Origin: Leptospiraceae bacterium
GTDB taxonomy: Bacteria; Spirochaetota; Leptospiria; Leptospirales; Leptospiraceae
Assembly (NCBI GenBank): GCA_024233875.1
Contig: JACKPB010000009.1
Location: 85,191 to 149,190 of the forward strand
Length of the DNA stretch: 64,000 bases
Direction: 5' to 3'
A program made the position numbers and the translations under genes. A model generated the notes under the pieces. It had not been told where the DNA came from. It saw only the letters and a list, made by a program, of their open reading frames with translations, and did not search any database. Below are positions 27,327 through 32,883 of this stretch, piece by piece. The first letter of the stretch is position 1. Every line of letters starts with the position of its first letter.

Positions 27327-28472
27327 TTAATTGTTAAGAATATTCAAATTTTTTAGTTTTGAAATCAGCAAATCCGTAACTTCGCTATAACAGGAACCAT
27401 CCAGATGAAACCCATCTTCAAATTTATTGCAGTGCATTGGAATTTCTAAATAATTTAAGTAATTCATTTTAGTTCTTACCTTTAGAGACCGGAATTTCTT
27501 TTCTATATAAGAATCATCAATTTCTGCTTTAAGCAATTTTTTCTTCAATTGATCGGAAATGGGTAAGGTTATGAATAGGACTCTGTCTGAATTTTCCCCC
27601 GAATAATCTATAAATTTTTTTAGGAATTTGATTTGAGAGTCAGATTCTCTATAGTGTCTACCTATGTACCTCTGAAATTTCAATTCAGCATCGAGACTCA
27701 ATTCTGAATCTGTTTTGGCTTCCTGGCTCAGGTTCACAAGTCCACCACGATTGGTGCGATTGATGTCCATAAGTAAATTTTGATAGTTTTCTCTAAGATA
27801 TTTCTTTTTCTTTTTTTGGACCTCTCCCTTCCAAACTACATCTATGAAGGAATTGTTCTCCGAATATGCTTTTACCGCAAATGGATATCGAAACACATAA
27901 AAATTTCTTCTAAAGAAGTAATTTAAAAATTCTGTTCCGGAAAATCCTTTGCCCTCTGATTTCCAGGGATCGTACTGTCCTTCCCACCAGAGATCTGAAT
28001 GTTTGAAATAAAAGGGAATGTCATAGGAATACATATCAGGATATTGATGACCGGACAGACTCAAAAGAAAGGGATCCACTTCAAGAACTAGAGTAGTGAT
28101 AGGAATGTTCTGATTTTGGAATAAACTCAAAAGATAATAGAAATAGGAAATACCGGGGAAAGGAACACAAAAATTATATACCACAAGTCTATCGTCCAGT
28201 TCTTCGATCTTCCTGTTTTCAATCGAGGCAGCTCTGGAAGATCCGAAGATCACTACCAATTTCTTTTCTCCGGATTTAATTTTGTCGAGATCAGGAGATT
28301 TCAGTAGATCATCCAAAAGACTCAAACGTGATTCATAAACTACAGGTTCAATTCGATTCCAGGAGATAAAATTCTCCTGTATCCATGGAAGAGTGAATAC
28401 TTTATCCAGGAGAAAGCAACTGAGCAGAAGTAATACCGGGAAAAACAGAAATGAGTAGTTCTTTTTAAGCAT
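27327..28472 (-). CDS. DUF1574-like Leptospira-type protein, possibly SGNH-fold
   Basis: N-terminal hydrophobic anchor. About 381 aa. VVIFGSSRAAS and DGFHLDGSC resemble SGNH blocks I and V. Last gene of a minus-strand operon with the three small lipoproteins. Confidence 0.45.
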   Translation of the reverse strand: MLKKNYSFLFFPVLLLLSCFLLDKVFTLPWIQENFISWNRIEPVVYESRLSLLDDLLKSPDLDKIKSGEKKLVVIFGSSRAASIENRKIEELDDRLVVYNFCVPFPGISYFYYLLSLFQNQNIPITTLVLEVDPFLLSLSGHQYPDMYSYDIPFYFKHSDLWWEGQYDPWKSEGKGFSGTEFLNYFFRRNFYVFRYPFAVKAYSENNSFIDVVWKGEVQKKKKKYLRENYQNLLMDINRTNRGGLVNLSQEAKTDSELSLDAELKFQRYIGRHYRESDSQIKFLKKFIDYSGENSDRVLFITLPISDQLKKKLLKAEIDDSYIEKKFRSLKVRTKMNYLNYLEIPMHCNKFEDGFHLDGSCYSEVTDLLISKLKNLNILNN

Positions 28473-28520: not shown

Positions 28521-28871
28521 TCAAAATAGAGGGATGGGCCAGTCTATAAATGTTTCTCGTTTCCTAAGATTGCAGTTGAAGCCTCCAATATCAGCTGTTG
28601 CAAAATTGATGATCATAGCTGAATTGGCACAATTGTCTACATCCTCTTTTTCATAATACGCAGATTCGTCTATATTCGCAAGTGTAGGAGCAAGAATAGC
28701 TGTAATAGAAACGGATCCGCCTCCTGCCGCTCCAATGATTGCAGCTGTTAAGATTTGATCTTTAGCTTCTGTTCCTTTTACAGTACTGGGATACGTGAGA
28801 CCAACCATATTCATTACCTGACAGTTAGAGATCAAAAAGAGAAACATGGAGAGAGTAATAATTTTTTTCAT
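28521..28871 (-). CDS. Small secreted lipoprotein, paralog 1 of a tandem triplet
   Basis: Signal peptide plus lipobox LISNC. Conserved VGLTYPS.V.G.EAKD...ADIGGF.C.L...I.WPIPLF. A Shine-Dalgarno sequence AAGGAA lies upstream. Confidence 0.7.
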   Translation of the reverse strand: MKKIITLSMFLFLISNCQVMNMVGLTYPSTVKGTEAKDQILTAAIIGAAGGGSVSITAILAPTLANIDESAYYEKEDVDNCANSAMIINFATADIGGFNCNLRKRETFIDWPIPLF

Positions 28872-28887
28872 ATTTTTTCCTTATAAA

Positions 28888-29241
28888 TTAAAATAATTGA
28901 ATCGGCCAATTCACAAATTTTTTGTGTTTTGTCAAATGGCACTGAAACCCACCGATATCCGCACTTAAAGAATTAATGAGCATGGCATCCTGAGCACAGG
29001 TTTCTACATCTGATTTATCATAAAACGCATCTTCTTCTATAAATGCCAACCGATCAGCAAAAAAACCTAATAGACCACCACTCGAACATTCCACGCAAGC
29101 AACTGCACCTATAAGTGCCTTAGTGATGATCATATCTTTAGCTTCTTTTCCGCTAACAGATTCGGGGTAAGTCAATCCAACAGAATCAAAGACAACACAA
29201 TGATTGAAAACAAACAATAGGACTAAGATAAATTTTTTCAT
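28888..29241 (-). CDS. Small secreted lipoprotein, paralog 2 of a tandem triplet
   Basis: Signal peptide with Cys (FNHC). Same conserved blocks and Cys pair as paralog 1. Shine-Dalgarno AGGAG is 6 nt upstream. Confidence 0.7.
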   Translation of the reverse strand: MKKFILVLLFVFNHCVVFDSVGLTYPESVSGKEAKDMIITKALIGAVACVECSSGGLLGFFADRLAFIEEDAFYDKSDVETCAQDAMLINSLSADIGGFQCHLTKHKKFVNWPIQLF

Positions 29242-29251
29242 AATATTCTCC

Positions 29252-29617
29252 TCAGATGATGGGAATCGGCCAGTTAATCAACTTCTTATGTTCTTTGAGG
29301 TTGCATGTATAGCCCCCAATATCTGCTCCGGTGAGATTGATCACGAGAGCTTCCTGAGCACATTTTTCAACTTCGCTTCGATCATAATAACTCTCAGGAT
29401 TGATTCCTGCCAATTTATCAGCGATCAATGAGAATGCGGGAGTGTTATTGCCTGAATACCCACCTTCAGTCGCCCCCACTACTGCATTGGATATAATCAT
29501 CATCTTTGCTTCATCCCCTTTAATCGATTCCGGACTTGAAAATCCTATTGTATCCATCACAATACAATTCGATAAAAGCATTACTATCAATATTGAATAA
29601 ACCAACCTTATCAACAT
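29252..29617 (-). CDS. Small secreted lipoprotein, paralog 3 of a tandem triplet
   Basis: Signal peptide LLSNC. The conserved blocks end NWPIPII. Shine-Dalgarno GGGAGAG is 7 nt upstream. Confidence 0.7.
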   Translation of the reverse strand: MLIRLVYSILIVMLLSNCIVMDTIGFSSPESIKGDEAKMMIISNAVVGATEGGYSGNNTPAFSLIADKLAGINPESYYDRSEVEKCAQEALVINLTGADIGGYTCNLKEHKKLINWPIPII

Positions 29618-29722
29618 AAAGAATCTCTCCCTGTCTATAAATCAAAATTCTGGTTACTTGGAATTGAGAAAATATTTTTTTTCTAAGTTGAAAAACTAAT
29701 CATAAAATTATCAATAAGATTT

Positions 29723-30052
29723 ATGGAAACAGAAAAATTTCGATTAGTTTATATCACATGCAAAGACAATGAAGAGGCAAAAAAGATAGGGAAGACTCTA
29801 GTGGAATCAAAACTCTGTGCATGTGTTAATATTATCAATCAAATGCAGTCTTTGTATATCTGGGAAGGAAAACTAATAGAAGACAACGAAAGTATTTTAA
29901 TAGGGAAAACTACACTCCCTAACCTAGACTCCATTCAAACAAAAATTAAAGAAATTCATTCCTATACCAATCCCTGCATTATCAGTTTACCTATTCTTGA
30001 GGGTAGCAGGGAATACTTAGAATGGATAGAAGCGAGTGTTAAAAGAGACTGA
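29723..30052 (+). CDS. cutA: Divalent-cation tolerance protein CutA
   Basis: ~109 aa. CutA1 fold motifs YITCKD...KLCACVNII...YIWEGK...E...YLEWI. Confidence 0.85.
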   Translation: METEKFRLVYITCKDNEEAKKIGKTLVESKLCACVNIINQMQSLYIWEGKLIEDNESILIGKTTLPNLDSIQTKIKEIHSYTNPCIISLPILEGSREYLEWIEASVKRD

Positions 30053-30206
30053 ATTTACAATTGAATGGATAAGAAAGTTACCTTTTGTAATAGCAGAGTA
30101 TCAGGTTATGATAGCTTTGAAGGTATATTAAGAATTTTCTATACAAAATTTTCAGTTTAAAATTGATTTAAACCCAATAAAATCAGTATTTTTTGAAGAG
30201 GTACCC

Positions 30207-30238
30207 TAAAAAACAAAAAACCCGCCTGAGCGGGTTTC
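30207..30238 (-). terminator. Rho-independent terminator for the microprotein gene
   Basis: aaacccgc-ctga-gcgggttt is an 8-bp GC-rich stem. On the minus strand it is followed by a U-run (plus-strand A-run at 30207..30220). Confidence 0.55.
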
Positions 30239-30272
30239 GAGAAATCATTTCTAATTGTTTCTATTCTGTTGA

Positions 30273-30404
30273 TCAGCTTTTTTTCTTTGCAGCAGTTTTT
30301 TTCTTAGCAGCAGTTTTCTTTTTTGCAACTGTCTTTTTCTTAGTTACAGCTTTTTTCTTTGCAACAGTTTTCTTTTTTGCAGCAGCTTTCTTTTTAGCAA
30401 CCAT
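30273..30404 (-). CDS. 43-aa lysine-rich repeat microprotein (histone-H1-tail-like), not in the ORF track
   Basis: Manual translation of the minus strand gives MVAKKKAAAKKKTVAKKKAVTKKKTVAKKKTAAKKKTAAKKKS*. A Shine-Dalgarno GGAGGAGG sits 8 nt before the ATG. A rho-independent terminator lies just downstream. The plus-strand ORF 30193..30459 (FFAAVFF...) is its low-complexity shadow. Confidence 0.55.
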   Translation of the reverse strand: MVAKKKAAAKKKTVAKKKAVTKKKTVAKKKTAAKKKTAAKKKS

Positions 30405-31092
30405 CGAACTTGCCTCCTCCTTAGAATTTCAATCGCTCTTTTATAATATCAACGCTTGATTACTTTGTGACATAATTTATTATCAGTTCTTATCCTGTAA
30501 AGTCTTTTGTGATTTTTTATTGAAATATTTTTTTCTTTATTAATAAAATTTGCAAAGCACCTTTATTGAATATAATGAATCATGAATGTATTAAATTTTG
30601 TAACATAGAACATTAATAACTATCGAACAAAAAACTTTTCTCTTTAATAAAAGATCAAAATTCTAATCGATCGGTTAACTTTTTTATGAACATAGGATCG
30701 TTTAAGCACTTTGGCTATAAAAATTAAGTATAGAATCATCTCCTTTTATCATCTCTATACATCCCAGGTTCACTTCTTTAATGCAAATTAATCATCAATC
30801 TATGCTAAACTATCTTTCTTGCTATGATCCAAACGCATCAATTGATAGAGTTTCCACCTTCAAAGGTTCTTAATTCAAAGAACACTCTATCACTTATGCA
30901 TAAATTTCTTAATACAAAACACTTTTCATGATAACTAGAAAAGAATTTTGCTTTGATTCCATGTTTACAAATGAAATTTCATTTCTATAACTTTGCAAGA
31001 CTCTACCGGAATCATTGATCAGGGTAATTTTAAAGCAGGGTAGAATGAAAAAATCGTTGATCACTTATAAATGAGTCTTACTTATATCAAAA

Positions 31093-32883
31093 GTGAGTTC
31101 AATTGTATCCAATAAACTTAAAAATTTTTTCTATCTCTCTGCCTTTAGCTTACTTTCAATTCTGTTTTACTACTTTAGTGCTCAATTCTATCTACTTTAT
31201 GATCAAAATTGTATCAATAAAGACTTCTTAACCTGGGATCCCGAACTGAGATATATACTTACATTAAAGATGATGAATTTTATAAGAGAAGGAAAAATTC
31301 ATTCTTACATTTTTCAATTCCTGGATTCACCTCACTGGCCTTCACTGAGAAATGTTCTGGAGAGTATCGTCTTTACCTTTACAGGCCATTCACCGGTAGT
31401 ACTAACGCTCATCACATTCTTCTTCTATCTCTTATTACCAATCGGAGCTCTCTTTCTATTCTGGAAAGAAAAACAGAAGTCTATACTCTCAATTCTGCTT
31501 TTAACCCTATATTTATTGGCTCTTTTGCAAGCAGACTCTTTACTACTCTATAGCTTTACGGGAATGCTGGAAGTTCAGGGAGCGTTTCTATTTATATTTA
31601 CAACTTACTATCTTTCCAAAGTTTACTCCGAACCTGAATTTATAAAAAAAGATTCAAACAAATGGTTGGTCTTCGGTTCTGTTTTTTTACTTTATCAAAC
31701 TAAATATCCTTACGGTTATCTTCTGGTTCTATTCCTATTTCTCTTTGAAGTGATTTTTTTTCCAAAACAGTCTTTCGGATTTGCTCTTGAATACTTTTCC
31801 TCGTTAAAAAATATTTATAAAAACCCGAGATGGCTCATTGCTATTCTAGCAATCCTCTCACTCTTCCTTCCATCTCACCTTTTGAAAGGAAAGACAGCTT
31901 CTTATCTTAGATATCTCTTCATGTTAAGCCTGGTGATTGATTTTTTATTTTTCTTTTATAAAAGATCTTCAAAGCAAAGTACCGAACGAATCGAATTCTT
32001 ATTTAAGTATGCTATCCTTCCTATCGTGATATGGATGTTCATACATCCGGATAGATTCGGAAGTTACTCAGGTCAGATCACCCATGTAGAAAGTCAGGGA
32101 TTCAATCCCGGTCAGGAGATCATAAAAGATAAAGATTATTATTTTTTATTCTTTACTGAGTTTGTTTGGAATTCTTTTTCTCAGTTTCATCTCGGCTATG
32201 CAGTTCTGGTTTTCAATCTCATCAGTTTTTTTTCCGGAATGTTGATTTATCTCAGAAGAAAATCCATCTCATACAGTTTCTTTGCCTCAACTGTTTGTCT
32301 TTTTACATTTTTGGAACTGAGTCTCTTCACTACAAACCGATTGGCAAGACATACTTATCATCTTTATCCCACAATGATTCTCTCTTTTGTATTTTTTATA
32401 TTAGAAAATTATAATGCACATAAGAAATCACTTACAGCTTTGAGTTTGATTTCTGTTCTTCTATTCTCTTATCCTTTCCTGATGAAGCCCGATTACTATA
32501 TCAGCAGAACTGAAGTTTGCTATACCGGTTATGATAGAAAAGACTACACAACTCCCTTATGGATGGAGAGCATTGCAAAAGAAAAACTCAATCGCAATAC
32601 AATTCTTTTCAATGAATTGAGCCCACTTCATGTAAATAAAGCAGATACAGAGTATCTTCTTTCTAAGATTTCTTATGATCGCAAAATCAGATTAACTATC
32701 GATCCGAAAAGAAAAATCGAAGACCTAGAAAAGTTTGATGAGATATGGATTCCTTCCAATCATTGCAATCTACCGAAGAATCTCGAAAAATTTCGAAGTC
32801 TCTTAATAAATCAGGGATTTGATTTGAATTTTGAAAAAATTCAATCCTCAGAGGGATGTATCCTTATCAATCAAAAGAAGTAG
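31093..32883 (+). CDS. Polytopic integral membrane protein, possibly a GT-C-type glycosyltransferase
   Basis: At least 10 hydrophobic helices over ~450 aa, followed by a ~140-aa soluble C-terminal domain. No catalytic motif recognised. Preceded by a ~630-bp AT-rich non-coding region. Confidence 0.45.
   Translation: MSSIVSNKLKNFFYLSAFSLLSILFYYFSAQFYLLYDQNCINKDFLTWDPELRYILTLKMMNFIREGKIHSYIFQFLDSPHWPSLRNVLESIVFTFTGHSPVVLTLITFFFYLLLPIGALFLFWKEKQKSILSILLLTLYLLALLQADSLLLYSFTGMLEVQGAFLFIFTTYYLSKVYSEPEFIKKDSNKWLVFGSVFLLYQTKYPYGYLLVLFLFLFEVIFFPKQSFGFALEYFSSLKNIYKNPRWLIAILAILSLFLPSHLLKGKTASYLRYLFMLSLVIDFLFFFYKRSSKQSTERIEFLFKYAILPIVIWMFIHPDRFGSYSGQITHVESQGFNPGQEIIKDKDYYFLFFTEFVWNSFSQFHLGYAVLVFNLISFFSGMLIYLRRKSISYSFFASTVCLFTFLELSLFTTNRLARHTYHLYPTMILSFVFFILENYNAHKKSLTALSLISVLLFSYPFLMKPDYYISRTEVCYTGYDRKDYTTPLWMESIAKEKLNRNTILFNELSPLHVNKADTEYLLSKISYDRKIRLTIDPKRKIEDLEKFDEIWIPSNHCNLPKNLEKFRSLLINQGFDLNFEKIQSSEGCILINQKK

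Follow-up and report, generated by a model that had tools for sequence, protein, structure and literature searches.

The locus raises the question of whether a short, lysine-rich repeat, read from the minus strand between two plus-strand genes, is a gene at all and, if so, what its product might do. Within the window, i.e., the 64,000-nucleotide stretch of Leptospiraceae DNA analysed here, the open reading frame (ORF) lies between cutA (PF03091; 29723-30052, plus strand), with which it is convergent, and a gene for a 596-aa polytopic membrane protein (31093-32883, plus strand; no Pfam or NCBIfam match), from which it is divergent. The window CutA is identical to that of a Leptospiraceae metagenome-assembled genome. 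The membrane-protein gene adjoins the microprotein gene in all lineages, and a distant Leptospira homologue of its product bears the UniRef name dolichyl-phosphate-mannose-protein mannosyltransferase. Upstream of cutA lie three tandem paralogous TIGR04452 (Lepto_Lipo_YY_C) lipoprotein genes encoding 116, 117 and 121 aa (28521-29617, minus strand) and, adjoining them, a DUF1574 gene (27327-28472, minus strand); in relatives, this block gives way to genes for a 7TMR-DISM histidine kinase or for an ABC transporter and an ATP:guanido phosphotransferase. No same-strand gene follows the microprotein gene, the next being the convergent cutA and the gene beyond varying by lineage, and no ribosomal-protein operon, polyphosphate, PHA, transporter, immunity or maturation genes are adjacent to it.

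The earlier note on this DNA had described a minus-strand ORF of 43 aa with seven KKK units, and this description proved accurate to the base. The coding sequence runs from ATG to TGA at 30404..30273 on the minus strand (stop included; 43 codons) and translates as MVAKKKAAAKKKTVAKKKAVTKKKTVAKKKTAAKKKTAAKKKS. The peptide is built as MVAKKK, followed by six units of [T/A][A/V][A/T]KKK and a final S, so that its seven KKK triplets recur with a strict six-residue period; at the DNA level, Tandem Repeats Finder reports a period of 18 with 6.9 copies and 76% matches. A composition count gives 21 K, 11 A, 5 T, 4 V, 1 M and 1 S (49% K, 26% A, 12% T, 9% V) and no D, E, F, W or Y. The KR fraction of this ORF is 0.49. 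Of the ORFs in the 64-kb window that reach 15 aa or more, only a shifted frame of the same repeat surpasses it (0.50), another such frame giving 0.40; three chance ORFs of 15-17 aa reach 0.44-0.47, and no second repeat-built, lysine-only ORF occurs in this set. The predicted product has a mass of 4.6 kDa, a net charge of about +20 and a pI of 11.3. AlphaFold2, run on the single sequence, predicts a single uninterrupted helix (pLDDT 89.7). The hydrophobic moment at 100 degrees is 0.00 for the 43-mer (0.00-0.10 overall), compared with 0.27-0.45 for magainin, melittin and cecropin, and the peptide has no globular domain, hydrophobic face, signal peptide or hydrophobic N-terminus. An 88-aa plus-strand ORF (FFAAVFF...) overlaps the gene; it was rejected as a gene in its own right, being not conserved and only 17-27 aa long in relatives, and reads as a shadow of the minus-strand gene. 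The identical 43-aa peptide is encoded in five further assemblies of the same organism. The earlier note had called the ORF unannotated, which holds as regards family assignment, of which there is none, but not as regards gene calling, since gene callers report the ORF in four of the six same-organism metagenome assemblies.

The ORF is embedded in a compact set of putative expression signals, all on the minus strand. A -35-like hexamer TTTACA (30496..30501), with an A/T-rich tract just upstream, is followed after an 18-nt spacer by a -10-like hexamer AATTAT (30472..30477), directly 3' of which stands a conserved GTCACAA (30471..30465), probably the site at which transcription starts. The motif CTTTACA is invariant in all eight aligned orthologous loci, and the -10 region, ATTATGTC.CAA, is nearly invariant between lineages. 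The Shine-Dalgarno sequence that the earlier note had placed 8 nt upstream of the start codon is indeed there: GGAGGAGG at 30420..30413, separated from the ATG by CAAGTTCG. In every orthologue AGGAGGC lies 5-7 nt 5' of the ATG. Downstream, the hairpin and U-run also claimed in the note take the form of an intrinsic terminator (30207..30238), with the stem GAAACCCGC-TCAG-GCGGGTTTT and a T-run. The stem (30238..30217) has 9 pairs, 5 of them G-C, and a loop of 4, and is followed by TTGTTTTTTA; the terminator begins 34 nt past the stop codon and is the sole terminator-like site in the 1.6 kb from 29600 to 31200, where 0.3 would be expected. The hairpin ACCCGC(C)...(G)GCGGGTTTTTTGT is present 3' of the ORF in every orthologue, and in one of them (L042) the innermost pair has changed from C-G to T-A in a compensatory manner. 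Together, promoter, Shine-Dalgarno sequence and terminator are strong and conserved, which suggests that the microprotein is highly expressed; its transcription, translation and abundance we infer from these sequence signals.

Syntenic loci of uncultured Leptospiraceae were reached via homologues of the 596-aa protein (46-55% identity), and a DNA-pattern scan of metagenome contigs added further loci. In all five Leptospiraceae lineages reached in this way, a minus-strand ORF of 24-36 aa that begins with MVAKKKAA occupies the gap between cutA and the 596-aa gene. The longest, of 36 aa, was called as a gene by JGI (L038, MVAKKKAAVAKKKPAAAKKKPAAAKKKKTVSKKKAS) and is alone among the orthologues in having two KPAA motifs. 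The others are 24 aa (MVAKKKAAAKKKVASKKKTASKKK in L039, L040, L057 and L072; MVAKKKAAAKKKAASKKKSASKKK in L041, L050 and L110), 26 aa (L042, MVAKKKAAKKKAAKKKAAKKKAAAKK), 27 aa (L153, MVAKKKAAKKKAAAKKKAAKKKAAAKK) and 28 aa (L127, MVAKKKAAAKKKTAAKKKAASKKKAAKK). Every orthologous ORF is preceded by CTTTACA, a spacer, (A/T)AATTAT-GTCACAA and AGGAGGC, and followed by the terminator. The synteny and repeat-number variation that the earlier note had proposed to look for in relatives are thus both found, with 4-7 KKK units and lengths of 24-43 aa when the window is included; the relatives also keep ORF, frame and Shine-Dalgarno sequence alike, whose loss the note had named as evidence against the gene.

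This conservation stands out from its surroundings. In the syntenic lineages, CutA shares 50-57% and the 596-aa protein 45-55% of residues with the window proteins, and third codon positions of these flanking genes are only 36-46% identical. From promoter to terminator (30532..30213), an island of conservation shows 57-87% identity to relatives in its non-repeat bins and 23-36% in the two bins with variable repeat number. Identity falls to 9-16% in the spacer past the terminator, on the cutA side, and drops gradually 5' of the promoter, from about 45% to 11-15%. All differences in ORF length are multiples of three and hence in frame. In the near-identical loci L042 and L153, the flanks are identical over 130 nt upstream and 100 nt downstream, and the ORFs differ by one inserted GCT codon and synonymous AAA/AAG swaps, a difference that reads as recent repeat-unit turnover with the frame preserved. 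The KKK triplets are kept, the residues between them shift among A, T, V, S and P, and acidic, aromatic and large hydrophobic residues are absent, which is the pattern expected of a charge-patterned disordered region; selection, as judged from this pattern, is acting on the charge pattern and not on the exact sequence. These comparisons bear out the view of the earlier note that such a translation and termination context is unlikely to arise by chance. The conserved cassette in five further lineages, with ORF, frame and signals maintained in synteny, supports a real, independently terminated microprotein gene. Among the loci examined, the gene was found in one clade of uncultured Leptospiraceae only: no Lys-rich ORF occurs at the non-syntenic loci of 596-aa homologues in L. 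tipperaryensis and two relatives (35-36% identical). A scan of genome contigs with CutA returned only distant, non-Leptospiraceae CutA loci.

The nucleotide sequence is constrained as well. Every KKK triplet in all lineages contains at least one AAG, and none is AAAAAAAAA. The longest A-run is 6-7 nt, compared with the 9-11 nt expected from the Lys codon usage of the window (74% AAA); for the window ORF, so short a run has P = 0.004 under the Lys codon usage null and P = 0.006 when the observed codons are shuffled. A Lys-rich message is expected to avoid long poly(A), for slippage-free transcription and decoding. The 5' UTR is well conserved between lineages, and codons 1-8 (ATGGTTGCTAAAAAGAAAGCTGCT; 30381-30404, minus strand) are identical across them, with L127 differing at the last base only. 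In the flanking genes, only 9-16% of the columns with an invariant residue share the codon in all five lineages. Set against such saturated synonymous sites, the identity of codons 1-8 points to constraint on the translation-initiation region or to a role at the RNA level, and the exceptional nucleotide conservation of the 5' UTR and first eight codons could reflect such an additional RNA-level role. A tentative stem-loop in the 5' UTR (30429..30459, minus strand; UCAAGCGUU ... AGCGAUUGA) appears in the minimum-free-energy fold of five of the six lineages and is also recovered by RNAalifold, its equivalents having been located in L039, L041, L042, L038 and L127. A double-sided compensatory change affects only one of its pairs (A-U to U-A). 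The RNAalifold consensus, in which the conserved GTCAC and the Shine-Dalgarno region are base-paired as well, has a weak energy of -4.3 kcal/mol and no covariation gain. The stem-loop is a possible regulatory or stabilising element.

Homology searches placed the peptide in no curated family. The 43-mer matches no Pfam or NCBIfam model at E up to 1-10 and no PDB chain at E up to 10, and phmmer retrieved no homologue from a collection of 5.8 billion sequences. These null results carry little weight, because low-complexity sequence leaves such searches nearly blind. Likewise, in an exact look-up of 10-11 Lys-repeat peptides, none was present in a collection of 15 billion proteins, and this absence is uninformative, since even the peptide of the JGI-called L038 gene is missing; Lys-repeat proteins seem to be systematically missing from the collection. 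Rfam gave no hit at threshold (best, Trp_leader, 20.7 bits against a cutoff of 41), and its sub-threshold matches were all driven by the terminator. Literature searches, too, turned up no Lys-repeat microprotein described from Leptospira or any other spirochete.

The earlier note had compared the composition with histone H1 tails, Hc1 and AlgP, and this resemblance holds for composition but finds no family model match. The Hc2/HctB models (PF07382, NF038052) do not recognise the 43-mer at any E up to 10, although it has the Hc2-type trait of consisting wholly of lysine-rich short tandem repeats in variable number. There is no match to the Hc1/HctA model (PF07432), and the peptide contains no non-repeat domain; the Burkholderia/Bordetella-type H1-like model (NF038053, cutoff 80 bits) is not matched either. 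The winged-helix globular domain of linker histones H1/H5 (PF00538) is absent, all 43 residues being repeat, and yet the composition is that of an H1 tail (K about 40%, spacers of A/P/S/T/V, no acidic or aromatic residues). The KPAA signature of AlgP/PhaF-type repeats is lacking, as the 43-mer has no proline, and no Pfam or NCBIfam ribosomal-protein model was matched when bL34, bL36, bS21, bTHX and bS22 were considered. With no curated family match, the peptide is not a demonstrable member of the Hc1, Hc2, Burkholderia H1-like or ribosomal-protein families. Its kind is nevertheless a known one, that of bacterial histone-H1-tail-like Lys/Ala repeat proteins; new here is a very short, stand-alone, domain-less member.

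The comparison with characterised systems brings out both likeness and distance. Hc2 is an all-repeat DNA-binding protein (PMC2848022), and it shares with the microprotein lysine-rich short tandem repeats throughout, the lack of a globular domain and a variable repeat number. It acts as a polycation on DNA, as is proposed for the microprotein; however, Hc2 is 165-237 aa long, is built of pentamers and includes arginine, whereas the microprotein has 43 aa in xxxKKK hexamers with lysine only, and its host is unrelated to Chlamydia, the host of Hc2. The H1 C-terminal tail resembles the microprotein in its K, A, T/S and V (and P, in the L038 orthologue) and in having no acidic or aromatic residues, and for both a disorder-to-helix transition on DNA would be expected, the helix of the microprotein being only predicted. 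In contrast to H1, the microprotein has no winged-helix domain and about one third of the H1-tail length, and the two are known to be alike by composition only. AlgP, PhaF and the NF038053 proteins also have a polycationic Lys/Ala repeat region, with DNA, polyphosphate granules or RNA as its binding partner, but there the repeat is attached to a structured N-terminal domain or extends over about 150-200 aa, whereas here the repeat is the whole protein of 24-43 aa. Finally, eL41, bTHX, bS22 and bL34 are similar in size (25-45 aa), in their many basic residues and in forming a single helix, yet they are fixed, non-repetitive and Arg-rich, unlike the variable, Lys-only repeat of the microprotein.

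Considering these features, we hypothesize that the locus is a monocistronic gene for an H1-tail-like polycation that binds polyanions non-specifically, DNA being the most likely partner, and we regard this reading as probable, if by no means secure. In this model, transcription from a sigma-70-type promoter (TTTACA, 18 nt, AATTAT) to the intrinsic terminator would yield an RNA of about 260 nt, on which the strong Shine-Dalgarno sequence would initiate the 43-residue peptide. The free 43-mer would be extended or disordered owing to its 21 unpaired positive charges and would act as a free-standing histone-H1 C-terminal tail, binding polyanions by charge, most likely chromosomal DNA but possibly also RNA or polyphosphate. 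Once bound, the peptide would probably turn helical, neutralising or condensing the polyanion. The C-terminal domain of H1 behaves comparably, being disordered when free and helical once its charge is neutralised on DNA. Taken by itself, the composition would fit binding of DNA, RNA, the ribosome or polyphosphate equally; the binding partner and physiological role are proposed from composition and from the examples of H1 tails, Hc2, AlgP and PhaF. Polyanion binding is favoured by the H1-tail-like composition together with the binding documented for Lys/Ala repeat regions: the KPAA-type repeats of AlgP bind DNA and polyphosphate granules (PMC9239181), and those of PhaF bind mRNA (PMC12818456).

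Other roles can be assigned to so basic a peptide. Eukaryotic eL41 and bacterial bTHX and bS22 are very basic single helices that occupy an rRNA groove, and a ribosome- or rRNA-associated microprotein filling such a groove would agree with the length of 24-43 aa, the extreme basicity, the predicted single helix, and the strong, conserved expression signals and translation-initiation region typical of highly expressed genes. However, the orthologues differ freely in repeat number (24-43 aa) and in spacer residues, a poor fit to a defined rRNA pocket, and the peptide matches no ribosomal-protein model, contains lysine only and no arginine, and is encoded outside any ribosomal-protein operon, so that we consider this role unlikely. 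We judge similarly doubtful a polyphosphate-granule or mRNA-binding regulator comparable to the KPAA repeats of AlgP and PhaF, as opposed to a general DNA condenser. The granule spacing by AlgP (PMC9239181) and translation activation by PhaF (PMC12818456) show what Lys/Ala repeats do in Pseudomonas, and the L038 orthologue does carry KPAA motifs, but the 43-mer has neither proline nor KPAA nor the N-terminal domains of AlgP/PhaF, and polyphosphate and PHA genes are absent from its immediate neighbourhood.

A 5' UTR and 24 initial coding nucleotides conserved far beyond protein needs, the possible conserved 5' hairpin and a terminator placed 3' of a short ORF dominated by one amino acid are what a functional RNA (a small or dual-function RNA) or the leader peptide of a lysine-sensing attenuator would present. 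Against this, every lineage keeps ATG and AGGAGG at a fixed spacing and shows in-frame indels only, the Rfam matches all stay below threshold, and the consensus fold has the weak energy and lack of covariation gain given above; we consider an RNA product or leader very unlikely. The attenuator leader as such was rejected, since with no same-strand gene downstream it would have nothing to control and the Rfam leader models remain below threshold. A low-complexity 18-nt tandem repeat in an AT-rich genome might also yield an ORF by chance from A-rich intergenic DNA, and polycationic peptides can be antibacterial, which would allow a secreted cationic antimicrobial peptide; both ideas appear extremely improbable. 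A chance ORF was rejected because the whole cassette, from promoter to terminator, is kept in synteny in six lineages within an otherwise diverged spacer; the ORF is, on the comparative evidence, a real gene and not a product of chance. An amphipathic cationic antimicrobial peptide was likewise rejected, as the hydrophobic moment of 0.00 goes with no hydrophobic face and no signal peptide or other export signal, and no transporter, immunity or maturation gene is adjacent.

Lys-repeat ORFs of this type also occur elsewhere in metagenomes. Of 116 genes beginning with MVAKKK behind AGGAGG (L043-L158), about 33 consist of repeat alone, with a Lys content of 40% or more and lengths of 12-127 aa, for example L144 (37 aa), L080 (53 aa), L123 (92 aa) and L095 (120 aa), and the hosts of the stand-alone ORFs span 27-71% G+C. 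Stand-alone Lys-repeat proteins thus look widespread. The longer metagenomic MVAKKK repeat proteins score 18-34 bits against the Hc2 cutoff of 40, i.e., below threshold, and are also sub-threshold to the Burkholderia H1-like model. L113, L063 and L148 combine an MVAKKK[VAKKK]n N-terminus with a SWIB/MDM2 domain at the C-terminus (PF02201; E = 2.5e-24 for L113), which links this type of Lys repeat to a chromatin-associated domain.

The preferred reading, an H1-tail-like polycation, gains a specific setting in this group of bacteria. Leptospirales are among the few bacterial orders with chromatin built on an abundant histone-fold protein conserved across the order (PMC10627809); the papers examined on this chromatin, that one included, make no mention of a lysine-rich or H1-like protein. 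By analogy, the microprotein might be a bacterial counterpart of the linker histone, a minimal partner made of a tail alone that would neutralise the DNA lying between histone-bound segments or around them, and the conserved 5' UTR and start region might then allow tight control of its dosage; we regard this more specific idea as distinctly improbable. More generally, the locus indicates that a repeat-only polycation of 24-43 aa can be encoded by a conserved, separately regulated gene and not be annotation noise, and that standard tools largely overlook genes of this kind. Given about 30 other MVAKKK-type ORFs, homology searches that are blind to them and patchy gene calling, tail-only H1-like peptides may form a class of ligands for the nucleoid, RNA or polyphosphate that is widespread and has been under-counted. 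For the Leptospiraceae, which have histone-based chromatin, the microprotein is a candidate chromatin component.
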